Source: an uncultured Ruminococcus sp.
Lineage (GTDB): Bacteria; Bacillota; Clostridia; Oscillospirales; CAG-272
Length of the DNA: 45,923 bases
Direction of reading: 5' to 3'
NCBI GenBank assembly: GCA_902778205.1
Contig: CACYWX010000001.1
Span: 1-45,923, forward strand
The translations under genes and the position numbers were made by a program. The notes under the pieces were generated by a model that was not told the DNA's origin, ran no database searches, and saw nothing but the letters and a program-made list of their open reading frames with translations. Every line of letters starts with the position of its first letter. The first letter of the stretch is position 1. Below are positions 1-12,564 of this stretch, in pieces.

Positions 1-25
1 CGGAATCTGATTCGGTATGACCCGA

Positions 26-1627
26 TCAGACGTCTTCCTTGCCCATTCTCTTCTTGGTGACGAGCACAACGCCCGCGCCCACCGCCAGCAGGCCGCCGAC
101 GATGTAGAAGATCGTGGTACCGATACCACCGGTGGAGGGAAGGACGGTACCGGACTTGTTAATAACGACTTCCTGATGGAGTTCTTCAGATGTGATAGAA
201 GTGTCGGTTTCAGTATACTCTTCGTTCCAGCCTGTGATGTTGCCATCTTCGTCAGTAATGGGAGTAAACGTGTATTCACCGATCTGAGTAAGATCATTAC
301 CGGGAACGGTAATATCTTCAGCCTTGTTGTAACCGTCAGGAACCGTGATTTCTTTAAGAGTATATTCCCAACTCTGATCAAGACCAAGGACAGAGATCGT
401 GGTATTGGTCGTCATGTCGAGGGTTGTGACAGTTCCATCAGGAGAGTAAGTATAAGTACCGTCACCGTTATCGATGAAGGTAAGAGCAGCTCCGTTAGCC
501 CACAGTTCGAACTGAGCGCCCGGGAGGGGTTCTTCATTTTCATCAGTCTTCACGATCTGGAAACCGTAAGTATAGATGACAACCGGCGGGGGCGGGTTAG
601 GACCGGGGATTTCGTTCTTCGCAGGGGCAGTGGCAGCAGCCGCGAGGATAGTCGCATCGTACGTAACAACGATCGGAATCAGACCGTCCTCGGGAGCATC
701 ATAGATACTGTTGCCATTTTCATCAACCATGGGGATGGTGAGAGTAAAACCGCCATTACCGTCGCCGGCAGCCGTGAAATTCGTAATCTCCGTGCCATTC
801 ACCGTAACAACAATGGTCTCCGGGTCGACAAACATGCCGGTCGCGGTATCGGTGAATGTCCATTCCGTTGTAATTTCTGTGTCGGTGACTGTCTCGATAG
901 AACCTTCGGTTTCCTTTTCACCGGTCCAGTTCACAGCGTTAGCGGTAACTTCAAAAGTAACTACGCTTCCGACGTGCGCGTTGGCTTCAGTAACTTTATC
1001 CTGCTCTTCACCGTCGACTGCGATGATCTTCTTCTCGGGACCAGTGGGTTCTACGAAGTTCTTGTCATAGACTTCCGCAGAAGGAGCAACCGTAGTGATC
1101 GTGACTGCAGAACCAAGACTGGAGGTAATGTAGTAGTATCCGAAGTCAAGATTGTCGAAGGTCACAGTGCTGTTAGTCTCATCGAATTCGCCTTCAATGG
1201 GAGTTCCGCCGAATGCTGCGTAATTAGCCTTCATCCAGTCGATGATAGCACTTTCGTCAGCGTCTTCCAGAGCCCATACGCTTATGTTGCCATTGGCATC
1301 GGGTGCGCTCCATCCGAAGAGAGAAGAATCAAGAAGGTCTTCATTTTCAGCGGGAGTGGTGTAACTAACAGCGTCGCCGCTGTAGGTAGCATCGAAAATC
1401 TTGTAGGCCGTATAGGTGTGGCCCTTGGTAGCGTTCTGAATGACAATGGTGCCAGTAGTAGCGGCTTCTCCGCCATCACCTTCGCCTTCACCCTCAGTGG
1501 GTTCATTAACGACGGGCTCATTGGTTTCGTCGTCAATGCCATCACCATCAGCATCGACTGCCCACGCAGTCAGCCCGAGCCCGACGATCATCGTCAGCGC
1601 GAGCAGAATTGCAAGAATTTTTTTCAT
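26..1627 (-). CDS. LPXTG-anchored pilin/adhesin subunit (SpaA/CnaB-type isopeptide-domain fimbrial protein)
   Basis: ATG at 1627 starts a signal peptide (MKKILAILLALTMIVGLGLTAWA), so I prefer it to the upstream ATG at 1657. An acidic linker follows. SpaA/CnaB-like blocks are TYTAYKIFDA and YGFQIVKTDENEEPLPGAQFEL. There is a pilin-motif-like VYDKN (Lys codon 1061-1063) and an E-box-like YTLKEITVPDGY. The C-terminus has LPSTG (128-142), a hydrophobic stretch and a KKRMGK tail. GC is visibly lower than in the rest of the window. Confidence 0.85.
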   Translation of the reverse strand: MKKILAILLALTMIVGLGLTAWAVDADGDGIDDETNEPVVNEPTEGEGEGDGGEAATTGTIVIQNATKGHTYTAYKIFDATYSGDAVSYTTPAENEDLLDSSLFGWSAPDANGNISVWALEDADESAIIDWMKANYAAFGGTPIEGEFDETNSTVTFDNLDFGYYYITSSLGSAVTITTVAPSAEVYDKNFVEPTGPEKKIIAVDGEEQDKVTEANAHVGSVVTFEVTANAVNWTGEKETEGSIETVTDTEITTEWTFTDTATGMFVDPETIVVTVNGTEITNFTAAGDGNGGFTLTIPMVDENGNSIYDAPEDGLIPIVVTYDATILAAAATAPAKNEIPGPNPPPPVVIYTYGFQIVKTDENEEPLPGAQFELWANGAALTFIDNGDGTYTYSPDGTVTTLDMTTNTTISVLGLDQSWEYTLKEITVPDGYNKAEDITVPGNDLTQIGEYTFTPITDEDGNITGWNEEYTETDTSITSEELHQEVVINKSGTVLPSTGGIGTTIFYIVGGLLAVGAGVVLVTKKRMGKEDV

Positions 1628-1702
1628 TTCTGTTGTCCTTTCAAAGAAGTTTGACATTTGTCTTCATTCCCCGGCCGTTTACGCCGGAGAAATGACTGTA
1701 CC

Positions 1703-3292
1703 TCAGTTCAGGCCGGTCAGGACCTTCACGCGGCCGTGCTGTGTTTCGTCAGCCTCCGCTTCCAGTCTTTCCGCCGTGCCTTCCCGGCCCATCCGGTATA
1801 CCCAGATGGAACCGCTCTCGTCCAGGCCTTCCACCGTGATCTCCACGGGTCCTGCAGGAGTGATTTTCACGAGCTGCTTTTCCGCCGCTTCCGCGGGGAT
1901 CGGATCCTCAGGGACCGTCTCCTCATGCCAGACCGAAATATCCAGCCAGCGTACGCCGAGAGGCTTCGCGCCTTCGCTTTCCGCCGCGCCGGTCACATCC
2001 GCCTGACCCGCGTACTCGTCGGCATCGCGGATCATGAGCGTCAGCTCCTCGGCAGGATAGGGGAACGCGCCGGCAACACCGTTCAGCGTCGCTTTCACGC
2101 CGTCCTCCGTCTCCGCGTACAGTGTCACGGTGGCGTTGGGATCGGCAAGCGGCACCGGAGCCTCGGGGATCGTTTCCTCAGCCGGATTGGCTGAAGTCTG
2201 GGCTTCCAGCGTCACGTAGTCGGGATTCTGAGGCAGGACCAGGTACCCGGTCAGCTTATCGCTGTCGAAGAGAACCGTCTCCTCCTCAACCGGTTTCCCG
2301 GTTCCGCCGGAGATCATGTCGAAGCCGTCTTCCCGGATCTCGGTCACGATCGCAACCCGATCCGCGAGGCCGTCCGCGTTGTCGTCGAAGAACGCAAGGT
2401 CGCCGCGTGCGGGAAGTCCGTCCTTCTCCATCCAGAATCCCTGCGTTTTTGCGGAGTTCATCCAGTTCGACGGGACAGGATCCGTCGGGACGTTCCAGAC
2501 GCCTGCGTAGTGCAGACAGAACATGACATACAGTCCGTTCCAGCCGGAATAGCGGGTGCCGTTCCAGTCGCCGTAGCGGGTGTATCCGTGGCGCACGTTG
2601 TATTCGTCCGTCACAAAGTTCCGCTCACTCTCCGCATAGCCGATCTGACTCCGGGCTATGGCCACAAGGTCATCCGCCCAGACCCCGGTCAGCTCTACGT
2701 TGCAGAAGGTGGATTCCCAGTCAAGGTCGATTTCGACGTCCGCGTGGGGATCGCCCGTCAGCTTCGGGAAGCATTCGTCCGTATGCACATGGGCGGTCAG
2801 GCCGCACGTGTAAACGGTTTCTTCCATGGTGCAAAACTCGTTGTGAACGTGTCCGGCACCTTCCTCCGGCTGACAGACGAACACAGGCGTTTTCACGTAG
2901 CATTCGTCCGTGTGAACGTGCTCCGGATCGTCCTCAAGGCCGCAGACGCAGGTCTCTTCCCACGCTATGCAGTCCTCGGTGTGCTCGTGAACCGTCCCTT
3001 CCGGGATCGTACAGACGAGAACGGGCTGAACCGCATAGCAGGCTTCGCCGTGGACATGGCCTTCGCACTCCTCCAGAGGACAGATCGTCTTCTGTACGAC
3101 TTCGATACACGCCTCTGAATGCTCATGCTCCTCCAACCCGCACACAGGCTCGTATTCCTGTGTGGTCGCCGGGTTGATCAGCATGATCACGGTAAGGAAC
3201 GCCACGGTGAGGGAGAGAAAAGCGATGATTCCCTTACGGGGGTTTCCCCGCTCACGGGCCAGGACAACGTCCGGACTTATTCTGATATCCAA
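1703..3292 (-). CDS. Membrane-anchored protein: N-terminal TM helix, six Cys/His repeats, degenerate CHAP (NlpC/P60-like) domain, C-terminal Ig-like region
   Basis: TTG start at 3292 lies 10 nt after a strong AAAGGAGG. A TM segment (GIIAFLSLTVAFLTVIMLI) is followed by the repeats listed separately. The CHAP-like block is IARSQIGYAE...YTRYGDWNG...WNGLYVMFCLHYAG...GDLAFFD...DRVAIVTEI. The stop is TGA. Confidence 0.7.
   Translation of the reverse strand: MDIRISPDVVLARERGNPRKGIIAFLSLTVAFLTVIMLINPATTQEYEPVCGLEEHEHSEACIEVVQKTICPLEECEGHVHGEACYAVQPVLVCTIPEGTVHEHTEDCIAWEETCVCGLEDDPEHVHTDECYVKTPVFVCQPEEGAGHVHNEFCTMEETVYTCGLTAHVHTDECFPKLTGDPHADVEIDLDWESTFCNVELTGVWADDLVAIARSQIGYAESERNFVTDEYNVRHGYTRYGDWNGTRYSGWNGLYVMFCLHYAGVWNVPTDPVPSNWMNSAKTQGFWMEKDGLPARGDLAFFDDNADGLADRVAIVTEIREDGFDMISGGTGKPVEEETVLFDSDKLTGYLVLPQNPDYVTLEAQTSANPAEETIPEAPVPLADPNATVTLYAETEDGVKATLNGVAGAFPYPAEELTLMIRDADEYAGQADVTGAAESEGAKPLGVRWLDISVWHEETVPEDPIPAEAAEKQLVKITPAGPVEITVEGLDESGSIWVYRMGREGTAERLEAEADETQHGRVKVLTGLN
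2768..3142 (-). repeat. Six tandem ~23-aa coding repeats of pattern C-x(3-8)-H-x-H-x(2,3)-C-(Y/I/F/T)
   Basis: Residues 51-175 read CGLEEHEHSEAC / CPLEECEGHVHGEAC / CTIPEGTVHEHTEDC / CGLEDDPEHVHTDEC / CQPEEGAGHVHNEFC / CGLTAHVHTDEC. Confidence 0.85.
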
Positions 3293-3319
3293 ATCGGAGT
3301 TTCCTCCTTTCTTCCAGAA

Positions 3320-4195
3320 TTATATACCAACGGCAGCAGGTTCCCCTGCGCCGACGGTTTCAGGTTGACGCTCCGTCCTCTGTTCCTCATAGTACTGCCG
3401 GAGGAAGTCGATGTGCATCTCTTCCCCGCGCTGTCTTGCCTTGACGGCGTCCAGCTTGTTGGCATAGCTTCCGAGGTAGAAGTACTGCCCCTTGAAACGG
3501 ATCTCCGCGACCCATTTGCCGCGCCTCTGGTTGAAGTAGACGCCGGTGCAGCCGCTGGTGTTGTTCGCGTTGATCCGGTTCAGATTCGATTCCAGTCTTG
3601 TGACGGATGTTCCCTCCACAAGCTTCAGCGTTTCAAGGATCGCGGCGGTCTGGAGGCATCCGCAGCTTCTGGTTCTTCCCTCGAGGAGACGGGTCTGTCC
3701 GACGACGGTTTCCTTGCCGCAGTCGCAGACGCACCGCCACTGATGCATTCCTTCCTGCTTCCCCGCGTATTCCGTCACCGTCAGATTACCGAACCGCTTT
3801 CCGATCCAGTCCTTGAGCGGAGGCCGGGATTTGCACCCGCAGCTCACGCGGTATCCGGCGGTCAGCTGATGCAGGGGAGCATCCACTTCTCCGCCGCAGT
3901 CGCAACGGCAATGCCAGATCACGGATTCCATCTTTTTGTCCACGCCGACAGGCCGAAGCGCCGTCAGCAGTCCGAACCGCATCCCGGTGACGTCTTTCTG
4001 TCTGGGAGAGACCCGGCTTTGGCATCCGCAGTCCTTCACTGTTTCGCGCTGAAGGCAGCGGGTGTCCAGCAGCTTTTCACCGCCGCAGTCGCAGCGGCAT
4101 CTCCAGACGGTATAACCGCCCTTCCGCTCAGCCGTCGCTTCCGCCACGGTCAGCATCCCGACGCGGGTCCCGATTCCGATCTTGTTCACTGCCAT
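3320..4195 (-). CDS. AP2/ERF-like DNA-binding protein with three N-terminal Cys-rich (zinc-ribbon-like) modules
   Basis: I prefer the ATG at 4195 (GGTGGA upstream); the track's longer ORF starts at a TTG (4225). There are three ~55-aa repeats, each G-x-L-T-V...W-x-C-x-C-D-C-G...(S/D)-C-G-C (about 3656-4174). The AP2-like block is GVYFNQRRGKWVAEIRFKGQYFYLGSYANKLDAVKARQ (about 3413-3556). Confidence 0.75.
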   Translation of the reverse strand: MAVNKIGIGTRVGMLTVAEATAERKGGYTVWRCRCDCGGEKLLDTRCLQRETVKDCGCQSRVSPRQKDVTGMRFGLLTALRPVGVDKKMESVIWHCRCDCGGEVDAPLHQLTAGYRVSCGCKSRPPLKDWIGKRFGNLTVTEYAGKQEGMHQWRCVCDCGKETVVGQTRLLEGRTRSCGCLQTAAILETLKLVEGTSVTRLESNLNRINANNTSGCTGVYFNQRRGKWVAEIRFKGQYFYLGSYANKLDAVKARQRGEEMHIDFLRQYYEEQRTERQPETVGAGEPAAVGI

Positions 4196-4223
4196 TGTTC
4201 CACCGTCTTTCCCATATCCAGGC

Positions 4224-4242
4224 AAATCCCTTGAAATCCCTT
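4224..4242. repeat. Tandem 9-mer AAATCCCTT-g-AAATCCCTT (AAGGGATTT x2 on the minus strand) in the AP2 gene leader
   Basis: Exact 9-nt copies at 4224-4232 and 4234-4242, which is 29-47 nt upstream of the ATG at 4195. Confidence 0.7.
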
Positions 4243-4290
4243 TGTTTCAGGCACTTCCGGGACATTTCCCGCTGCCCGGGGAACGAGAAA

Positions 4291-4313
4291 AAGCATCACT
4301 TAAGCACACCTTA
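4291..4313. repeat. Copy 1 of a 23-nt direct repeat (aagcatcacttaagcacacctta)
   Basis: Matches 4441-4463 at 18/23 positions, and all 5 differences are transitions. The spacing is exactly 150 nt. Both copies lie upstream of the AP2 gene. Confidence 0.6.
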
Positions 4314-4440
4314 ATCCGAACCGCTGTCATCGTCTTTGCGCACGAACATTTCGGGACTCTTTATACGGGTATCATTTTATCACAAACCCGTCACCTTGTC
4401 AAGGGTGAACTGAAAATTTATTCCAATGTATTCCAGCTAC

Positions 4441-4463
4441 AAGCGTTACTTAAGTGTACCTTA
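4441..4463. repeat. Copy 2 of the 23-nt direct repeat (aagcgttacttaagtgtacctta)
   Basis: See copy 1. This copy contains the 8-nt palindrome ACTTAAGT. Confidence 0.6.
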
Positions 4464-4655
4464 GTTTACAGCTTCTTCCCCCGTTTTTCAAGCCCGGAAG
4501 CATGAAGTGCAAATTTTCCGCACGAACAGCCTCTCCCCGGTTATCCGCGCTCACGGATCAGAACCGGTGTTTTCCTCCCTTCTGCCCCGAATACAACTCA
4601 GGCTTTCGGAATGTTGCAGCGTTCCGGGATTTTTTATTTTTCCGGAAATCGATCC

Positions 4656-5206
<551 letters not shown>

Positions 5207-5466
5207 CTATATTTTCAACCATGCCCGCCGGTGATGTTGAAATTATACGCTTGTCCCGCAATAAGCACAGCATAAGCGATGAATTTATTTCAAATCATTG
5301 AGCAATTCGGCGCCATAGCACATCATAGCTTTTACCAGTATTTATATAAGCTTTTTTAAAACAACTTCAATACTAATCGTTTTTTGCGTTTTTCTTTATT
5401 GCGGGCAATCCTGTTTAGCACACGTTCGGGCGATTCGCCAGGGCACGGCATTTTCACCATCTTCAA

Positions 5467-5495
5467 TTATATCACATAGTGTTTGGTATTTCAAT
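5467..5495 (-). promoter_or_regulatory. Sigma-A-type promoter TTGAAA-N17-TATAAT inside the AT-rich scrap
   Basis: The -35 is at 5490-5495 and the -10 at 5467-5472 (minus strand), with an exact 17-nt spacer. It points toward the recombinase remnant, and an ATG follows only 5 nt after the -10. Confidence 0.45.
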
Positions 5496-5963
5496 ACCGG
5501 TAAGAACTATGTTGGGGGAGTGCTAAAAAACGATTCTTTTCGATAAGCTGCCCAAGAAGAACAATGTCCATGTCCGACATTGCGTACGGACAGCACGCAG
5601 AGCCCGCGCGGCTGACCGGGAATTCCGTGCAGGTGCTGCTGACTCCGCAAGGGCAGACGGAGCGTCTTCGGGGATGCCGCAGAAGGAGAATGGGGCTATC
5701 GCATAAACTTCAGAAATGGAGAAATGCGACAGCCCCATCCGTCAGGCATATACAGGTTCGGTCGGGACGACTTCCCCGGCTCTGTCGTAAACAGAGCTGC
5801 GCCGTCTGACCCGTTCCATCCGATCGGAGGCATTGAGCGCTTCGGTCACGCCCTCATTCCTCATTACGGCGTCCTCGACGGTTTCCGGACATTCTCCGCA
5901 GGAACGGTCGATCCCGGAAACAGGCCGATCAAAACCTTGCATGAGTTTAAAGTGAGGTACGCC

Positions 5964-7568
5964 TCACTGCTTCTCGAGAACGCTTCTGTCGAGGACGCCG
6001 GACCGGTCCGCCTCCAGCACCAGCTCCATCTGAAGCATCGCCTGGTTGAGGGGCGCGGTGACGAAGCCGAAGAGGATGTCCACCGCCATGGCTGTGGTGA
6101 GCGCGTCCTCCGGGATCCCCAATTGGGCGAAAATCACGGCGTAGGACAGAAGGCCGATCCCCGTCACCGGCGGGCTGGCCGCCTGAAGCGTCACGGTCAG
6201 AAGCACCGCCATGACGAGCCAGAAGGGCGACACCTCCGCGCCGGACGCCGCCGCCTCATAGAGGATCACGATCATGGACGCCACGGTCCCGGCGGGCATG
6301 TAAATCAAGAGTCCCAGCGGGAGCCCGGCCTTCGTCAGCGTCCGTCCGATCCCCAGCCGCCGCTCGCAGCAGAGCTGGTTGGCGCCGTAGGCGGAATTAA
6401 CCGAGCCCGTCCGGAGCGCCGTCAGAAACGACTCCCGCATCTTCCCCACCAGAACCGCCGGGGAGATTTTTTCCTTTCCGGACACCAGCAGCAGCTGGAG
6501 GAGAAAGAGCGCGCCGCAGAGGACAAAGAACAAGAGGACCGGCTTCCACAGCGAAAGCAGAGGGGACAGGGACTCGGACCAGATCCCGAAGATCAGAAGC
6601 AGTGACACGAAGAACGGCGTCACCCTGCCCACCCAGTCCGCCACCAGAAGGCCCGTCGTGCTGAGCTGATCCACCAGGGCCACCAGACCGCCGGACTGCT
6701 GCCCCGCCGTCAGAAAGGCGTGTCCCAGCACCAGCGCGATCAGGATCAGCTGGGGCGAGTCGCCGGAGATCATGGGGGATAGAATGTCCGTGGGAATGAT
6801 GCGGATGAGGAAGTCGAGCAGCCCCTGGATCCCTCCTCCCGCGGCGGCTCCCGACACCGGACGGAACAGCCGGTACGACACCGCTGCCGTCACAAGGGTC
6901 ATAAGGGAGATGCTCAGCAGAAAGCGCAGGATCAGCCTCCTCCCCTCCCTGCTCATGGCCGCCGCGTTCCCGACCCCGCAGACCGCCGCCAGGACGGAGA
7001 AAAACACGATGGGTCCGCCGGCGGTGTTCAGAATCCGCAGAAAGGCGTTCCGGACCGGCTGGAAAACCGCGGTCAGCACCGTGTCCTGAGCGGCCTCCGG
7101 AAGCAGAAGATCCCCGAGAAGCCCCGCCAGGAGCCCGATCCCTACGGCGATGCCCAGCGTGACGGCGGGATGGAGCTGTCTCCGCTTCAGCCGCAGCTGG
7201 ACGGTGTTGGTGTTGTGCCGATAGGTGTAGACCGGATTCAGGCCGATCCCGTTCAGAAGGTTGTCCGCCCACGCGCCGAGATCGTTTTCCGCGCTGGTCA
7301 GGGGATCGTAGTTGTCCCCCGTCAGCTCCATGGTGACCGTGGGTCTGCCGAGCCGCTCCCCGGCGCTGATCCGGACCCGCTCCTCCTCGCCGAAGTGATC
7401 CCGCCAGCGCAGAAGGGCCTCCTCCAGCGACAGCCGGATCCGGAGAAGCTCGGTGCGCTCCGTCCGGAGTCCCCGGAGATAGTCCCCGATGCGGGCGGAG
7501 ATCTCCTCGATGGCCTCCGCGCTCAGAGGGTACTCGCCCCGCCATGCGCTCCTGTCCTGCTTGTCCAT
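5964..7568 (-). CDS. Divergent DAACS (GltP/SLC1)-fold membrane protein with a ~130-aa cytosolic N-terminal domain
   Basis: I chose the ATG at 7568 (MDKQDRS) because the upstream gene stops at 7597. The first ~130 aa have no TM segment. The rest is a multi-pass region with DAACS-like blocks: LTALRTGSVNSAYGANQ, GLPLGLLIYMPAGTVASM, LQAASPPVTGIGLL and AVDILFGFVTAPLNQ. Confidence 0.7.
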   Translation of the reverse strand: MDKQDRSAWRGEYPLSAEAIEEISARIGDYLRGLRTERTELLRIRLSLEEALLRWRDHFGEEERVRISAGERLGRPTVTMELTGDNYDPLTSAENDLGAWADNLLNGIGLNPVYTYRHNTNTVQLRLKRRQLHPAVTLGIAVGIGLLAGLLGDLLLPEAAQDTVLTAVFQPVRNAFLRILNTAGGPIVFFSVLAAVCGVGNAAAMSREGRRLILRFLLSISLMTLVTAAVSYRLFRPVSGAAAGGGIQGLLDFLIRIIPTDILSPMISGDSPQLILIALVLGHAFLTAGQQSGGLVALVDQLSTTGLLVADWVGRVTPFFVSLLLIFGIWSESLSPLLSLWKPVLLFFVLCGALFLLQLLLVSGKEKISPAVLVGKMRESFLTALRTGSVNSAYGANQLCCERRLGIGRTLTKAGLPLGLLIYMPAGTVASMIVILYEAAASGAEVSPFWLVMAVLLTVTLQAASPPVTGIGLLSYAVIFAQLGIPEDALTTAMAVDILFGFVTAPLNQAMLQMELVLEADRSGVLDRSVLEKQ

Positions 7569-7596
7569 GTACTTCTTCTCCCCGTTGAATCGCCCC

Positions 7597-8388
7597 TCAG
7601 GACCGGCCGTCGTCCTCCATCGGCAGATACCGCTCGTACAGCAGCTTCGCGAATTCACAGCTGGTGTAGGCAGCGAACTTCTGGTACTGGTCCGATTTCT
7701 CGCTGTTGGCGTAGTCGCAGACGCTCTTCACGATCAGCGGCACCGGACGGGGATCCCGGCTGTGAAGGGCCGCGTAGACCACCGCGTAGGACTCCATGTC
7801 CAGTCCCATGGTGTCCTTGAACTGGGAGTGCACCTGCTTTTCCAGCACCTGCCGGTTCGCCACTACCGTACTGCCGCAGGCCATGGGTCCGATCTGGACG
7901 TGGCACTGGTTCTCCGCCGATTCCGCCGCCGCCCGCACGTATTCCAGCACATGCTCCGGCACGGCGACCTTCGTGGACCGGGGCAGAAAGCCCACGTCGC
8001 CGTAGGTGATGTACGCGGCGTCCGGACTCACGAATTTCCCCACGGCGTAATTCCAGACCACGTCCGGCACGATCACGTCCCCGTAAATCTGCTCCGCCAC
8101 GTCGGACAGGGCCACGCCCGCCGCGATCCCCACCATGATGATGTACCGCGGGCAGAAGTTGTAAATGACCTTCATGGAGCAGGAGGCCGCCGCCGTCATC
8201 CCCATCTCCCCGATCCTCGCGTGAACGATGGTGTACTCCTTCCCGTCCCGCCGGAACGACGCTCTTTCGTAGGGCTGATCGTCCCCGGGTATGCGGAAGG
8301 GCTCCCAGTCGCAGAAATGCAGGACCGCCCGGTATTCCGTATCGGTCACGGACAAAAGAACCACGTCGCATCGATTTGTACTGTCCAT
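7597..8388 (-). CDS. PNP_UDP_1-family nucleosidase/phosphorylase-like protein (MTA/SAH-nucleosidase fold, NLR/STAND-effector-like subtype)
   Basis: Motifs are VVLLSVTDTEY, IIMVGIAAGV, GLDMESYAV and SVCDYANSEKSDQYQKFAAYTSCEFAKLL. A GGAGAGG RBS precedes the ATG at 8388. Confidence 0.75.
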   Translation of the reverse strand: MDSTNRCDVVLLSVTDTEYRAVLHFCDWEPFRIPGDDQPYERASFRRDGKEYTIVHARIGEMGMTAAASCSMKVIYNFCPRYIIMVGIAAGVALSDVAEQIYGDVIVPDVVWNYAVGKFVSPDAAYITYGDVGFLPRSTKVAVPEHVLEYVRAAAESAENQCHVQIGPMACGSTVVANRQVLEKQVHSQFKDTMGLDMESYAVVYAALHSRDPRPVPLIVKSVCDYANSEKSDQYQKFAAYTSCEFAKLLYERYLPMEDDGRS

Positions 8389-8426
8389 AAAGCCTCTCCA
8401 GCCTGCCTGTCGGGATATGATACCTC

Positions 8427-8455
8427 ATTATACATCGCTTCGTCCTTTTTTTCAA
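8427..8455 (-). promoter_or_regulatory. Sigma-A promoter TTGAAA-N17-TATAAT for the nucleosidase/membrane-protein pair
   Basis: The -35 is at 8450-8455 and the -10 at 8427-8432 (minus strand), with a 17-nt spacer. It lies about 40 nt upstream of the ATG at 8388. Confidence 0.65.
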
Positions 8456-8626
8456 TAAGAATCCCGCACGGAGCGCCGCCGTTTCCGCCGTTTTTTCGGG
8501 ATCCGGGACCGCGGAGGAGGAGAACCCGATTTTTTCTGATTTTTCTGCCCAAACCCACACCATTTTCAAGCGTTTTGCGCTATAATCAGAGTACCGGACG
8601 GGAGCCCGAACAAATGAGGTAAGATC

Positions 8627-9517
8627 TCACCGGGGGATCAGGCCGATGGTCCCGTCCTCGTTGTAGGAGAACTCCTTCACGCACACGGAGCGGTGGAACA
8701 GACTGCCTCCCGGGAGCTCGTCCGTGTGGTAGAACAGCCAGGACCTGCCCCGGAAGTCACAGATCCCGGGATGGTTCGTGAAGCACCGGCCCTCCTCCAT
8801 CAGCACGCCCCGGTATACCCACGGCCCGGTGGGAGACTGAGACGTGGCGTAGGCAAAGTGCTCGTTGTGCCCCTTCCCCTCAGCGAAGGCGGCGTAGATC
8901 ATGTAATAGAGCCCGTTCCGCTTGTAAAACCACGGTCCTTCCCCGTAGGAGGTCCCGGTCATGTGGCCGCCCTTTCCGAAGGCCTCCGCAGTCATGGGGA
9001 TCCTCACCACACCCGTCCCCTCGTCGATGGAGACCATGTCCTCGTTCAGAAGGACGTACCTCAGCTCCGGATTGCCGAAGTACAGGTAGGCCTGCCCGTC
9101 GTCGTCGATGAACACCGTGGGATCGATGTCGTTCCAGTCGCCCTCGTCCACCAGCGGATGCCCGATGTCCCGGAACGGGCCCGCCGGGGAGTCCGAAACG
9201 CCCACCGCGATGGCCATTCCGCCTCCGGTTTTGTGGACCGGGCAGTAGAGCTAGAACTTCCCGTTCCGCGCGGCGCACTGGGGTGCCCAGGCCCTGTCGT
9301 CCGCCCAGGCGATGTCGTCCAGGGAGAAGACCTTCCCGTGGTCGATCCAGTGCTCCATGTCCGTAGTGGAGAAGCACCGCCAGTCGAACATGGTGTAGAA
9401 ATCGTTGACCAGCTCGTCCTCGTCGTGGGTGGTGTAGAGATACAGGGTGTCCCCGTACACCATGGGCGCGGGATCGGCGGTGTAGAGGGAGGGAAAGAGC
9501 GGCTTGCCTTCCGTCAT
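8627..9517 (-). pseudogene. GH43-family glycoside hydrolase interrupted by one in-frame TAG
   Basis: ORFs 9251..9727 and 8627..9217 are in the same frame. Read-through gives ...APQCAARNGKF*LYCPVHKTGGGMAIAVGVSDSPAGPF..., with the TAG at 9251-9253 where GH43 proteins normally have Tyr. The likely start is the ATG at 9517 (MTEGKPLFPSLYTADPAP). Confidence 0.75.
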
Positions 9518-9553
9518 GGGAAATACCTCGTTTCTTCCGTTTTGATCGATCCC

Positions 9554-9582
9554 ATTATACCATACCGCCGCGCGCTTTGCCA
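9554..9582 (-). promoter_or_regulatory. Promoter TGGCAA-N17-(TGg)TATAAT upstream of the interrupted GH43
   Basis: The -10 is at 9554-9559 with an extended TGn. The -35-like hexamer is at 9577-9582. Confidence 0.5.
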
Positions 9583-9643
9583 GTGTCAGGCCGGGATTTC
9601 CTTCGGCGGGAGCGGAAAAATCGGGCGGATTCTCACTTTTCCC

Positions 9644-9672
9644 TTGACGAATCCGGCGCGGACTGATAAAAT
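9644..9672 (+). promoter_or_regulatory. Promoter TTGACG-N17-TAAAAT for SBP-1
   Basis: The -35 is at 9644-9649 and the -10 at 9667-9672, with an exact 17-nt spacer. Confidence 0.6.
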
Positions 9673-9753
9673 AAGCACAAAGACGAATCTCTGCACTGCC
9701 CGGACATCCCGGGACCATGCCCGCCATAACGGGTTGGGGAAAGGACTACTGCC

Positions 9754-11286
9754 ATGAAAAGAAAATCGGCCGTTTCGCTCCTTCTGGCGTTTCTGATGCT
9801 GACGGGAGCGGCATCCTGCTCGAGCGGCGGCACCAACGAGGAAAAGGGGACCGCTCCGGAGACGACTGCCGGGGCATCGGAGGTCACGCCCGCCGCCGCG
9901 GAGGAGGAACCGGAGGAGCCCGAGGGAAACGGACGCTCGAACGTGAAGGACTCCCTGCCGGATGATCTGGACTTCGGAGGCGCGGTGCTCCACTTCTACA
10001 CCCGCGGCGGCGACCGGGACACCCTGATGGAGTTCCAGGCCGAGGAGCTGAACGGTGAGGTGGTGAACGACGCCGTCTACTCCCGCAATCTGGCGGCGCA
10101 GGAGAGGCTCAACATCGACATGGACCTGATCCTGGCTCCTGTGAACATCCACGGCGGCACCAACGACCAGATCCGCAAGTCCGTCTCCTCCGGCTCGGAC
10201 GACTACGATCTGCTGGGCAACGGCATGTATTCCATGATGTCCCTGACCATGGAGAACATCCTTCTGCCCATGAACGAGCTGCCCTATCTGGATTTCTCGG
10301 CTCCCTGGTACAATCAGGCGTTCCTGGAGGACACCAACCTCAATGGCCACAACTACACCGTCATGGGCGAGGTGGGCCAGACCATGATCTCCGGCGCCTT
10401 CGTCATGTTCTTCAACCGGACCATGTTCGACACCTTCTACAACGGGGACGTGAACCTCTATCAGGTGGTCAACGAGGGCGAATGGACCATCGATAAGATG
10501 ATCTCCCTCTGCGAGCCGGTCTATCAGGATGCCAACGGCGACGGCGAGGCCAACGAGGGGGACATCTTCGGCCACTACTTCACCAACACCGACACCCTGG
10601 GCGCGGACGCCTTCTACGGTGCCGCCCGGATCGACTACCTGAAGAAGGGCGACGACGGAGTCTGGTTCTTCAACGCCACCTGCGACCGGATGTTCACCTT
10701 CACGGAGAAGATGCACAAGCTGCTCTTCGAGGGGACCAACACCCTCCGTCTGCCCTACAACAACGACGACATCATGAACACCATGAAGGCGGACCAGACG
10801 ATCTTCGTCACCTGGATGCTCTCGGGCATCGACCTCTTGCGGGACATGGAATCCGACTTCGGAATCCTGCCCATGCCGAAGCTGGACACGGCACAGGAGC
10901 AGTACGCCGAGTACGTCCACGATGCCTCCTCCTCTTTCTCGATCCCCGTGACGGAGGACGATCCGGCCATGTCGGCGGCGTTCCTCGAGGCCATGAGCGC
11001 GGAGTCCTTCCGGACCGTGACGCCGGCCTACTTTGAGACCGCCCTGAAATCCAAGTACTCCCGGGACTCCGAGACCTCCCAGATGCTGGACATCATCGTG
11101 GACGGGATCTATCTGGACATCGGATACATCTTCGGCGGCAGCGTCAACAGCCCCATCGGCAAGATCCGCAGCGTGCTGGCCTCCGCCACGTCCTGTGAGA
11201 ACGCCGCCTCCAGCCTGGCCAAGCAGGAAAAGGCCACCATGAAGGCCCTGGAGAAACTGCTCCAGAAATACGAGGACATCCGGTAA
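9754..11286 (+). CDS. Extracellular solute-binding lipoprotein (ABC-type sugar SBP, large ~500-aa family), SBP-1
   Basis: Lipoprotein signal MKRKSAVSLLLAFLMLTGAASC. The family block SDFGILPMPKLDTAQEQY is shared with the other three SBPs. Confidence 0.85.
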   Translation: MKRKSAVSLLLAFLMLTGAASCSSGGTNEEKGTAPETTAGASEVTPAAAEEEPEEPEGNGRSNVKDSLPDDLDFGGAVLHFYTRGGDRDTLMEFQAEELNGEVVNDAVYSRNLAAQERLNIDMDLILAPVNIHGGTNDQIRKSVSSGSDDYDLLGNGMYSMMSLTMENILLPMNELPYLDFSAPWYNQAFLEDTNLNGHNYTVMGEVGQTMISGAFVMFFNRTMFDTFYNGDVNLYQVVNEGEWTIDKMISLCEPVYQDANGDGEANEGDIFGHYFTNTDTLGADAFYGAARIDYLKKGDDGVWFFNATCDRMFTFTEKMHKLLFEGTNTLRLPYNNDDIMNTMKADQTIFVTWMLSGIDLLRDMESDFGILPMPKLDTAQEQYAEYVHDASSSFSIPVTEDDPAMSAAFLEAMSAESFRTVTPAYFETALKSKYSRDSETSQMLDIIVDGIYLDIGYIFGGSVNSPIGKIRSVLASATSCENAASSLAKQEKATMKALEKLLQKYEDIR

Positions 11287-11317
11287 AAGGCCGGAGCCGA
11301 CAATCAAACCGCAAAAG

Positions 11318-11357
11318 CATCCGGGCTGAGCTCTTCTGAAAGGGTTCAGCCCGGATG
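11318..11357 (+). terminator. Hairpin terminator after SBP-1
   Basis: A 12-bp perfect stem (catccgggctga / tcagcccggatg) with a 16-nt loop. The T tract is weak. Confidence 0.55.
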
Positions 11358-11364
11358 GTGTTAT

Positions 11365-11580
11365 AAAGGGATAGTTAAGTCAGCAATATGTATATCCACC
11401 GATTTTGATTTTCATTTGATTTCAGCAGACTCTCCTTCCACCGCGAGCGGTCCCCCTCCCTCTGAGAGGGAGGCAGGAGAGCGGCCATCCCTTATGGCTC
11501 CCTCCCAGAGGGAGCTGTCAGCTATGCTGACTGAAGGAGAGTCTGACATACACAGGAGCCGCTGACTTAAAGTATCCCTT
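11365..11580. repeat. 215-nt nested-palindrome element (MITE-like, or a structured RNA/compound terminator)
   Basis: The outer inverted repeat is aagggatagttaagtcagc (11366-11384) against gctgacttaaagtatccctt (11561-11580). The inner perfect 13-bp inverted repeat is 11426-11438 / 11533-11545. Three internal hairpins are at 11455-11473, 11484-11498 and 11497-11515. The element starts 4 nt after the stop of the 11584 gene. Confidence 0.6.
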
Positions 11581-11583
11581 ACC

Positions 11584-12564
11584 TCACTCCCGCCACGGCG
11601 TGATGTCCACGAACTCATGCCTGACCTCGGCGACGCCGCGGGATGTGACCCGGAGGACCGTGCCGCCGTTGATGCCCTCCTCCCAGTAGCTGCCCGTGCC
11701 GGTCTTCAGGCCGTAGCAGAGCCATATGCCGCGGTAGGGGATGGCGAAGGTGTTGACGTGGTCGTGGCCGGCGATCACGTGACGGGTGGTGCCGCCCTCC
11801 AGAAGCGTGTCGAAGGCCCCCTCGTCCACCGGCGGCGAGCAGATTCCCTCCCGCCACAGGCCGAAGGACGCCTCGTATCCCGGATTCCAGACGCCGGTCC
11901 CGTCCGCCTCCTCCTTGGTCACCGCGCGTCCGTCGATCCCCGCCCGGAGCGCGGCTTCGGCGGCGGACCGGTAGGCGTAGATGGGCATGTGCAGGATCAG
12001 GGTCGTGTCTGTGCATCCGGCGGCGGACAGGGCGCGGACCTGCTCCTTCATCCAGTCCAGCTGCGCGGGAAGGAGCCGGGCGTAATCCACATAGGGCTTT
12101 CCGTCCGCGCCTGTGAAGGTCTCCCGGTCGTGGCTGTCCATCATGAGCAGACCCTCCGCCGGGCGTCCCTCCTCCTCCACGGCGATGACGTAGTTGCCGT
12201 TTCCGAGCTCCGCCGGGCCGCGTTCATAGAGGCAGAGGGGATGCTTCAGATACCCCCGGACCACCCGCTCAACCGCCTCCGGTCCTTCCTCGTCGTCGTG
12301 ATTGCCCCAGACCGGAGCCCACGGGACCCCGAAGGAATCGAGAAAATCCGCCAGCATTTCGTAGGCCCGCGCGTTCCCGATGTAGGACAGGTCGCCGCTT
12401 ACGGTGACGAGATCGGGGCGCACCCGCTCCATGAGGGTCCGGATCGTTCCCTCGAGGATGCGCCGCTTTTCGCATCCCGGAGCCCATTCGGCGTCCGCCA
12501 GATGCGTGTCCGTCAGGTTGAGGATCAGAAAATCCCGGCCTTTTTCTTTTTGTACCGTCAGCAT
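11584..12564 (-). CDS. Calcineurin-like metallophosphoesterase
   Basis: Only the last 326 codons of the 787-aa track ORF are credible. The start is MLTVQKEKG with an AGGAGG RBS. Motifs are LTDTHL, VSGDLS, WGNHDD and AGHDH. It overlaps the upstream stop by 7 nt (ATGCTGA). Confidence 0.8.
   Translation of the reverse strand: MLTVQKEKGRDFLILNLTDTHLADAEWAPGCEKRRILEGTIRTLMERVRPDLVTVSGDLSYIGNARAYEMLADFLDSFGVPWAPVWGNHDDEEGPEAVERVVRGYLKHPLCLYERGPAELGNGNYVIAVEEEGRPAEGLLMMDSHDRETFTGADGKPYVDYARLLPAQLDWMKEQVRALSAAGCTDTTLILHMPIYAYRSAAEAALRAGIDGRAVTKEEADGTGVWNPGYEASFGLWREGICSPPVDEGAFDTLLEGGTTRHVIAGHDHVNTFAIPYRGIWLCYGLKTGTGSYWEEGINGGTVLRVTSRGVAEVRHEFVDITPWRE

Follow-up and report, generated by a model that had tools for sequence, protein, structure and literature searches.

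Nucleosidase and SLC1-fold genes of an uncultured Ruminococcus sp. as candidate components of a partner-switching signalling system

The window analysed here is a stretch of 45,923 nucleotides from an uncultured Ruminococcus sp. (contig CACYWX010000001.1), and its subject is a pair of neighbouring genes: gene 1, encoding a stand-alone PNP_UDP_1-family nucleosidase (PNP), and gene 2, encoding SDF-N, in which an anti-sigma-like domain precedes a transporter fold of the SLC1 family. On balance, the two genes appear to be components of an undescribed signalling system in which nucleotide cleavage is coupled to partner switching. Judged by their gene neighbourhoods, the two are members of a single gene set that recurs, in loose clusters, among Bacillota of the gut and rumen, and in this sense the functional link proposed in an earlier sequence-only reading of the same DNA was borne out. 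The self-contained two-gene cassette of that reading was not, as the conserved partners (STAS, STAS-APH, PP2C-HATPase_c_2 and HD_4 proteins) are absent from the window. The whole analysis was computational and used sequence, predicted structure and gene neighbourhood in fragmentary contigs of metagenome-assembled genomes (MAGs) and metagenomes. The coding features, with lengths in amino acids (aa), are as follows.

7597..8388, minus strand: gene 1, 263 aa, stand-alone PNP_UDP_1 nucleosidase placed in the Cap17/DtcC-like effector-type clade (Pfam, PADLOC)
5964..7568, minus strand: gene 2 (SDF-N), 534 aa, predicted cytosolic anti-sigma-like pseudokinase domain and SLC1 fold of the dicarboxylate/amino acid:cation symporter (DAACS) type (Pfam, AlphaFold2)
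7164..7568, minus strand: N-domain of gene 2, aa 1-135, predicted GHKL fold of the SpoIIAB/RsbW/UsfX type (AlphaFold2 and Foldseek, hhalign)
6045..7151, minus strand: SLC1/DAACS (SDF) domain of gene 2, complete predicted fold with the Na+/substrate residues replaced (phmmer against 9bgz, family alignment, Foldseek)

The association of gene 2 with partner switching was detected in its relatives. A motif scan with the N-domain over one genome per GTDB species resulted in 38 SDF-N loci, 37 of them holding the gene; every locus came from a Bacillota MAG of rumen or gut origin, and several families were represented. Of the 37 loci, 27 encoded a STAS, HATPase_c_2, APH or PP2C domain within 5 kb of SDF-N; the strand was nearly always that of SDF-N, and the gene was frequently the adjacent one. 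The neighbours confirmed with Pfam were single-domain STAS, STAS-APH, STAS-APH-HATPase_c_2, SpoIIE-HATPase_c_2 and HD_4 proteins. The STAS proteins beside the SDF-N relatives carry the motif SSAGL, which by analogy with SpoIIAA would hold the phosphorylatable Ser. The modules of SDF-N and STAS were located in core contexts (rpoB-rpoC, prkC-rsgA and fatty-acid synthesis genes). In the sister clade, the STAS, kinase and phosphatase genes were 5-6.5 kb away, and no partner-switching genes were found within 10 kb at the SDF-N homologue P0207 and at the loci L027 and L028.

The same genes were encountered from the nucleosidase side. A metagenome scan with the alignment of solo PNPs gave 80 PNP loci with 38-97% identity, and partner-switching parts and/or SDF-N were present in 21 of them, or in 17 of 39 when counting is limited to loci whose flanks add up to at least 8 kb. 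The nearest component started within 170 nt of the PNP gene in 10 loci, on the same strand in nine and on the opposite strand in one (L095). The density of components per 10 kb was 1.0-1.2 at 0-6 kb from the PNP gene versus 0.25-0.5 at 6-10 kb. When the partner-switching proteins, SDF-N, BrkB and HD_4 proteins were run against PADLOC v2, no match was obtained; one RelA_SpoT protein matched PDC-S33. The gene orders of representative loci are given below.

L077 (human gut): PNP, SDF-N (10-nt gap), HD_4, STAS-APH, STAS, HATPase_c_2
L098: HD_4, STAS-APH, STAS, X-PP2C-HATPase_c_2, BrkB, PNP
L084: PNP, 422-aa protein, 5TM_LYT-PP2C-HATPase_c_2 (7236-10058), HD_4-STAS-APH fusion (10055-11782), cation-efflux protein, STAS
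L087: RelA_SpoT, HD_4, STAS, PNP, X-PP2C-HATPase_c_2
L062 and L080: PNP, then STAS
L069: PNP, then PP2C

Several of these proteins are fused to each other, and the fusions HD_4-STAS-APH, STAS-APH-HATPase_c_2 (L041 1294-2907), 5TM_LYT-PP2C-HATPase_c_2 and PNP-PP2C bind the gene set together. In L087 (6232-7826), the RelA_SpoT small alarmone synthetase is encoded directly 5' of the HD_4 hydrolase, which hints at nucleotides of the (p)ppGpp/(p)ppApp type. Genes of DUF218 (SanA/YdcF-like) recur beside the PNP or HD_4 genes of the modules (L032 210-4737, L036 1584-2864, L137 13974-15188) and may be a further member of the set.

The direct succession of the two genes was also observed far from the window species. 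SDF-N is encoded beside PNP in L077 and L097, and 4.6 kb upstream of it on the opposite strand in L073; the N-domain is kept in all three. The full-length identity to the window protein is 26-28% for the SDF-N of L077 and L073, and about 27% for L097 over the stretch covered by the contig. Because the adjacent SDF-N proteins are only 26-28% identical to that of the window, the PNP-SDF-N adjacency is judged to have three or more independent origins in divergent lineages, namely that of the window species, the L077 group and L097. In L032, L036 and L102, the PNP gene is 6-7 kb upstream of a block of STAS, STAS-APH-HATPase_c_2 and SDF-N genes. Among the close relatives, the pair was repeated only in the same-species contigs L009 and L054. 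The neighbourhood conservation that the sequence-only reading proposed to check was found in part: the nearest sister clades lack the adjacency, and both genes belong to one recurrent gene set. The reading that the pair does not co-occur and the genes are accidental neighbours was rejected on the result of the metagenome scan from the PNP side. PNP homologues of 67-81% identity stand alone, with glycoside hydrolase genes and the like around them. A gene of PF00144 (beta-lactamase/esterase) adjoins the solo PNP in two otherwise different neighbourhoods (L001/L002 8859-9998; L006 6496-7887; L008 1-933), which may be a coincidence.

Gene 1 was determined to consist of a single domain, PNP_UDP_1 (Pfam PF01048, residues 34-239, 8.5e-14, 52 bits against a cutoff of 25.1). 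Its residues 4-255 matched positions 146-402 of the 407-residue PADLOC profile PDC-M60C (7.6e-53, 177.8 bits), and the match with the PADLOC model of the PN-superfamily effectors of CBASS was 3.3e-10. In contrast, it failed the equivalog models of MtnN (NCBIfam NF004079, 46.7 bits against a cutoff of 169; TIGR01704, 28 against 73.8) and of futalosine hydrolase (24.7 against 124.7). The score with PDC-M60C, compared with the 46.7 bits for MtnN, indicates that gene 1 is not a housekeeping Pfs/DeoD enzyme. As the PNP part of PDC-M60C occupies positions 146-402, the profile has the receiver+PNP architecture of DtcC, and it probably corresponds to this effector of the Detocs system. The PNP domain of DtcC comprises residues 140-387; PNP domains of this type are ATP/dATP nucleosidases which are toxic on expression as isolated domains, and the effector clade is strongly enriched beside defence systems (Rousset et al., bioRxiv 10.1101/2023.01.24.525353).

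An exhaustive phmmer search over 1.84 billion representatives resulted first in a few solo clusters of about 260 aa and then in proteins of about 400-415 aa, 35-40% identical to gene 1, with the PNP part at about 145-405. All three of the latter that were tested had the Response_reg+PNP composition. The other multi-domain relatives were PNP-SpoIIE(PP2C) and PNP-SpoIIE-adenine deaminase fusions (P0222, P0242). The fusion with adenine deaminase couples the nucleosidase to an enzyme acting on the base it would release, and the PNP-PP2C fusion P0222 is encoded in a Bacteroidota-like locus with a MerR regulator next door and no STAS gene, a context that is uninformative. In the neighbour-joining tree of PNP domains, the solo PNPs and the PNP-PP2C fusions formed a clade sister to the receiver-PNP proteins.

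In an alignment of 30 sequences including the receiver-PNP proteins, gene 1 retained all the clade-invariant residues (E18, M198, E199, K221, D225 and K231) and the clade tail KS[VI]CD[FY]A[DN]..K.D.[YW]Q.[FY]AA. Its motifs TDTEY, GLDMES and SVCDYANSEKSDQYQKFAAYTSCEFAKLL are in invariant or near-invariant columns of the effector-type clade. D225 is inferred to be the positional counterpart of the active-site Asp mutated in DtcC (D353A) and Cap17 (D472A). The closest solved structures were methylthioadenosine/S-adenosylhomocysteine (MTA/SAH) nucleosidases, with which the catalytic residues align; a search of the PNP profile against the PDB gave MTA/SAH and futalosine nucleosidases alone and no effector-type PNP. 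Conservation within the solo-PNP family is tight, at 63-70% identity over many taxa. Neither a receiver nor a SAVED-like sensor domain was detected in gene 1 with Pfam and PADLOC, and it has no NLR/STAND module and no STAND NTPase domain. Gene 1 is thus classed with the Cap17/DtcC ("immune ATP nucleosidase") branch of PNP_UDP_1, in which it is a stand-alone enzyme. The sequence-only reading had foreseen much of this: the intact look of the catalytic blocks agrees with the clade-invariant columns, the tail it associated with PNP_UDP effectors recurs in the effector-clade alignment, and the assignment to the conflict-system type and not to Pfs/DeoD is supported by the PADLOC match, the MtnN scores and the tree, in which the protein groups with effector-type PNPs. 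Its label "NLR/STAND-type" was misleading, given the missing STAND NTPase domain.

In gene 2, the start of which agrees with the starts of its homologues (88 of full length), residues 140-508 matched the Pfam family SDF (PF00375, 5.6e-37, 128 bits against a cutoff of 27.9). The AlphaFold2 model of the full-length protein had a predicted local distance difference test score (pLDDT) of 89.3, and Foldseek aligned it to the complete structures of GltPh and GltTk with template modelling scores (TMt) of up to 0.82, both re-entrant hairpins being present. The likeness of the model (m0095e5ecf10c) was far greater to the inward-facing states of GltPh (TMt 0.78-0.82) than to the outward-facing ones (0.45-0.53), a difference that may stem from a bias of the predictor or from the family itself. 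The positions of GltPh were mapped onto gene 2 through the phmmer alignment to the aspartate transporter 9bgz, with the GltPh numbering of the Na+ and substrate sites assumed as commonly established. The following correspondences were obtained.

NMDGT: YMPAG in gene 2 (N310 to Y423, D312 to P425)
Ser pair of hairpin HP1 (SSA): SVN in gene 2, the first Ser kept and the second replaced
D394: G501
R397: T504
T398: A505
D405: L512
N401: kept as N508

Of the canonical DAACS binding residues, gene 2 retains just the equivalent of N401 and one Ser of HP1. The replacements are family-wide, extending over 53 homologues with identities down to 34%, and the SDF-N family has motifs of its own (ASVDAAYG.N..CCER.LGI, LPLGLVIYMPA and ASPPV.G). 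The scores with the NCBIfam models of DctA and GltP were 49-51 bits against cutoffs of 513-638, both failed. Gene 2 is accordingly predicted to have a complete DAACS fold without the canonical Na+/substrate residues. This agrees with the altered hallmark motifs noticed in the sequence-only reading, and an alignment to functional GltP/DctA with conserved binding motifs was not obtained.

The N-domain of gene 2 could be recognised by its predicted structure. The match with Pfam HATPase_c_2 (PF13581) was weak and below the threshold (E 0.033, 14.7 bits against 27.4), the best family member, P0166, reached 1.8e-5 and 25.1 bits against the same threshold, and the profile gave chance-level matches alone against PDB sequences. 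The AlphaFold2 model of the N-domain had a pLDDT of 85.6, and its top 19 Foldseek matches were UsfX, SpoIIAB and RsbW (probability 1.0, TM 0.55-0.69, including 8ih8, 1tid and 6m36); the SiaB-SiaC complex was also among the matches. With hhalign, the N-domain was aligned over 111 columns to the HATPase_c_2 kinases encoded next to the relatives, with 86% probability and an E-value of 4.6e-6. The resemblance to GHKL/anti-sigma boxes suspected earlier holds at the level of the fold. The Glu of the N-box is kept, the Mg-binding Asn (N47) is replaced with a near-invariant Arg (R54), the Asp of the G1 box (D79) with L82, and the glycine lid GGLG of the G2 box is lost, the three altered elements being invariant in the neighbouring kinases. 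The loss of the Mg-binding Asn, the G1 Asp and the lid indicates that the N-domain is a putative pseudokinase. As the N-termini of SLC1 proteins are cytoplasmic, it would face the cytosol.

The pair has the regulatory features listed below.

8427..8455, minus strand: sigma-70-type promoter, -35 TTGAAA at 8455-8450, 17-nt spacer, -10 TATAAT at 8432-8427 (pattern scan, sequence)
8393..8399, minus strand: ribosome-binding site GGAGAGG, 4 nt 5' of the gene 1 ATG (read from sequence)
7569..7596, minus strand: intergenic spacer of 28 nt between the gene 1 stop (7597-7599) and the gene 2 ATG (7566-7568)
5951..5968, minus strand: hairpin with a 7-bp stem and a 4-nt loop, overlapping the gene 2 stop TGA (RNA fold)

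The promoter of gene 1 has 11 of 12 consensus matches in the pattern scan, and three promoter-like sites were counted in the 4.5 kb scanned, compared with 1.5 +/- 1.2 in shuffles. Gene 2 has a sequence resembling a ribosome-binding site, GGGGAG at 7583-7578, 9 nt 5' of its ATG and inside the spacer. Neither the sequence nor the pattern scan revealed a promoter or terminator between the genes, which makes it probable that they are co-transcribed. The hairpin is followed by just UUU 3' of the stem, the local fold z-score is -1.8, and the terminator scan did not pick it up; it is judged real and weak, and would be a weak terminator at best. An Rfam scan of 4000-10000 gave no match, hence no riboswitch or leader in that range. 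Both the spacing of the two co-directional genes and the near-consensus promoter were as the sequence-only reading had described them; the hairpin over the stop codon is present, and its strength falls short of what the terminator scan detects.

The findings can be combined into the following mechanism. A STAS protein encoded elsewhere in the genome would be phosphorylated by a HATPase_c_2 kinase and dephosphorylated by a PP2C phosphatase, and would thereby switch its docking partners. Candidates for these are the true kinase and the SDF-N pseudokinase domain, and likewise the nucleosidase, whether in a direct or an indirect manner. The N-domain of SDF-N would serve as the docking site for STAS at the membrane, being the obvious candidate for this because it is a paralogue of the STAS-binding kinase. 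The transporter-like domain might read a membrane or metabolite signal as the input. One output would be the nucleosidase, cleaving adenine or related nucleotides and being restrained or activated via STAS or the N-domain. In the window species, just two alternative docking partners or outputs, the PNP and SDF-N, may have come together behind one strong promoter. The genes associated with the set are typical parts of stress and nutrient signalling, namely the alarmone synthetase and hydrolase, LytS-type 5TM sensors and PP2C. A physiological switch responding to the energy state or nucleotide pools is judged a more likely role than abortive infection. A bolder version is offered only tentatively: a new class of switch in which a Ser-phosphorylation/STAS module gates an immune-clade nucleosidase together with alarmone enzymes, and an SLC1 "transceptor" provides a dead anti-sigma domain as the STAS dock, leading to chromosomally encoded abortive infection or to programmed ATP depletion and dormancy in gut anaerobes, with the pair in the window being the two alternative partners of one STAS protein.

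Several observations weigh against the coupling of the two genes to partner switching. No STAS, HATPase_c_2, PP2C, APH or HD_4 gene was detectable in the 45.9-kb window, and for this reason the STAS, kinase and phosphatase genes would have to lie elsewhere in this genome. The adjacency of the pair is absent near the SDF-N genes with 72-79% identity (L015-L018) and near the PNP genes with 78-82% identity (L006, L055-L057), and the SDF-N gene of L010 has no PNP beside it either. Solo genes in ordinary contexts, such as carbohydrate utilisation, account for over half of the PNP loci, and the PNP-PP2C fusions are rare, with 3 clusters. Domains in the loci were called mostly by tblastn with a small number of query proteins, on MAG or metagenome contigs that are fragmentary. 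A near-consensus promoter precedes an enzyme whose relatives are toxic when unregulated, the explanation of which is conjectured.

An anti-phage function of the pair or of the larger gene set by abortive infection is considered unlikely. The system would be an analogue of Detocs in which a Ser-phosphorylation/STAS module replaces His-Asp phosphotransfer; on infection the nucleosidase would be released and deplete ATP and dATP, with SDF-N as a membrane sensor or pore. The matches of gene 1 with PDC-M60C and the CBASS effector model, the receiver-PNP proteins as its nearest multi-domain relatives, and the enrichment of the clade beside defence systems together with the toxicity of isolated domains (Rousset et al., bioRxiv 10.1101/2023.01.24.525353) are in line with such a role. 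However, the neighbourhoods of the relatives, which were surveyed without enrichment statistics, are core-genomic and include citrate synthase and glycoside hydrolase genes besides rpoB-rpoC, prkC-rsgA and fatty-acid synthesis. No defence genes were found among the window neighbours scanned, and no His-kinase or receiver domain was detected with Pfam in any of the ten. The partner-switching proteins and SDF-N matched no PADLOC model, the 63-70% identity of the solo-PNP family over many taxa was judged atypical for defence genes, and the associated genes are the stress and nutrient signalling parts named above. Scans of viral contigs revealed no SDF-N and only 3 distant PNP matches, so the genes are not phage-borne. 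The defence role suggested in the sequence-only reading remains unproven, given the core-genomic contexts of the relatives.

With a similarly low probability, the two genes have independent, ordinary functions, gene 1 as a salvage nucleosidase and gene 2 as a divergent carrier of amino acids or dicarboxylates, their adjacency being an accident of rearrangement beside a mobile-element scar. The restriction of the adjacency, among close relatives, to one species-level lineage is compatible with this, as are the PNP homologues that often stand solo among carbohydrate-utilisation genes, the alignment of the catalytic residues of gene 1 with its closest solved structures, the MTA/SAH nucleosidases, and the strong, constitutive-looking promoter, which suggests a non-toxic product. 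In contrast, gene 1 is far below every cutoff for MtnN and futalosine hydrolase and groups with effector-type PNPs, and the equivalents of N310, D312, D394, R397, T398 and D405 in gene 2 are replaced family-wide. Gene 2 additionally carries the anti-sigma-like domain. Each of the two families, independently of the other, is repeatedly clustered with the same set of partner-switching genes, and the families repeatedly occur together as well. The alternative of nucleoside salvage plus uptake, mentioned in the earlier reading, is also poorly supported.

The DNA on both sides of the pair was compared with L009, a contig of the same species.

5940..5950, no strand: synteny break (blastn of the window against L009, alignment ending at 5946)

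Window positions 1-5945 lack synteny with L009, in which radical-SAM and TatD genes occupy the corresponding place. They encode a SpaA/LPXTG surface protein (26-1657), a protein of 529 aa whose repeats are rich in Cys and His (1703-3292) and one of 301 aa (3320-4225) in which CxCxCG motifs recur and AP2 is matched weakly, and the GC content falls to about 0.50 at the left end. Directly downstream of the pair, the DNA is AT-rich (GC 0.41) with a frameshifted resolvase remnant (4656-5156 and 4958-5137, minus strand). A second TTGAAA-N17-TATAAT site with an upstream TG is located at 5466-5494 (minus strand), in the AT-rich stretch just 5' of the remnant. The GH43 gene on the other side (8627-9517, minus strand) has one in-frame stop (…ARNGKF*) where L009, 97% identical, has Tyr. 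Recent pseudogenisation would account for the stop, as would an error in sequencing or assembly. The interrupted GH43 and the AT-rich scrap with a dead recombinase had thus been read correctly. The "island context" derived from them applies to the DNA inserted or rearranged just past the hairpin, as in L009 the pair has the same location and the resolvase region is missing. When repeats were searched for on either side of the pair, no bounding inverted or direct ones came up, and the short repeats obtained were at chance level. The open reading frames of both genes are intact in three assemblies, and the ratios of nonsynonymous to synonymous substitutions (dN/dS) relative to L009 and L054 were 0.38 for PNP and 0.11-0.12 for SDF-N, which points to purifying selection on both genes and to their being functional. 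The pair is very improbable as decaying, non-functional cargo of a dead mobile element: the GH43 nonsense codon and the resolvase remnant in the AT-rich stretch just downstream would suit such an origin, but the intact and selected reading frames, the same placement in L009 without the resolvase region, the lack of bounding repeats, and the size and conservation of both families oppose it.

If the coupling of the pair to partner switching is true, the immune ATP-nucleosidase branch of PNPs would include a large group of tightly conserved stand-alone enzymes in Firmicutes of the gut and rumen, connected with partner switching and the metabolism of alarmones and not with CBASS, Detocs, Avs or pAgo. 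This group would either trigger nucleotide-depletion immunity in a new way or put the same chemistry to physiological use, for example in the control of energy stress or dormancy. In gene 2, as far as the literature searched shows, an SLC1 fold would for the first time be joined to a domain of the anti-sigma-factor type, which makes the protein a candidate transporter-derived sensor feeding a partner-switching pathway. The gene set is amenable to testing, the proteins being small, soluble or expressible and the operons compact, with six genes in, for example, L077. There are known examples of partner-switching systems, of effector-type PNPs and of SLC1 carriers. In the literature searched, no paper linking partner switching with a PNP, an ATP nucleosidase or a dicarboxylate symporter was found, and the combination of the three, the fusion of SLC1 with an anti-sigma domain and the solo-PNP branch tied to partner switching were not found in that literature or in PADLOC v2.

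Among the known systems, gene 1 is comparable with DtcC of Detocs and Cap17 of CBASS, where a module for phospho-signalling or ligand sensing controls the enzyme: it belongs to the same branch of PNP_UDP_1, is 35-40% identical to the receiver-PNP proteins, and shares their tail and invariant residues. Unlike them, it is the PNP domain alone, without a receiver or SAVED-like sensor, and its relatives are found in core contexts and not in defence islands. Neither a DtcA-type histidine kinase nor a DtcB was found, and the signalling parts of the relatives are STAS, PP2C and HATPase_c_2. MtnN (Pfs) has the same fold, and its catalytic Glu, Met-Glu and Asp positions align with gene 1, whereas the score of 46.7 bits against the cutoff of 169, the tail signature and the placement in the tree differ.

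The transporter-like half of gene 2 shares with GltPh, GltTk, DctA and GltP the complete SLC1 fold with both re-entrant hairpins, and differs from them in the family-wide replacement of the binding residues and in the additional N-terminal cytosolic domain. Similarly to the SLC26/SulP carriers with a C-terminal STAS domain, a membrane carrier is here fused to one half of a STAS/anti-sigma pair. The arrangement is mirrored, as SulP bears the STAS half and gene 2 the anti-sigma-like half, and the superfamilies are unrelated. The N-domain itself has the predicted fold of SpoIIAB, RsbW and UsfX, is homologous to the neighbouring HATPase_c_2 kinases, and has STAS proteins with SSAGL as the usual neighbours of its gene. 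It differs from these anti-sigma factors in its fusion to a transporter fold and in the loss of the Asn that binds Mg, the Asp that binds adenine and the glycine lid. UsfX is a non-kinase member of the anti-sigma group. No sigma-factor gene was seen in the annotated neighbourhoods.

Control without a sigma factor is found in SiaABCD of Pseudomonas aeruginosa, where an enzyme is controlled through protein-protein binding by a set made up of a PP2C phosphatase, a kinase of the HATPase_c_2 type and a STAS-like protein. The output of SiaABCD is a diguanylate cyclase, whereas the candidate outputs here are the nucleosidase, the alarmone enzymes and the transporter-like protein. The logic proposed for the pair would thus resemble both SiaABCD, in which an enzyme is gated by partner switching, and Detocs, in which phosphotransfer gates a PNP of the same type.

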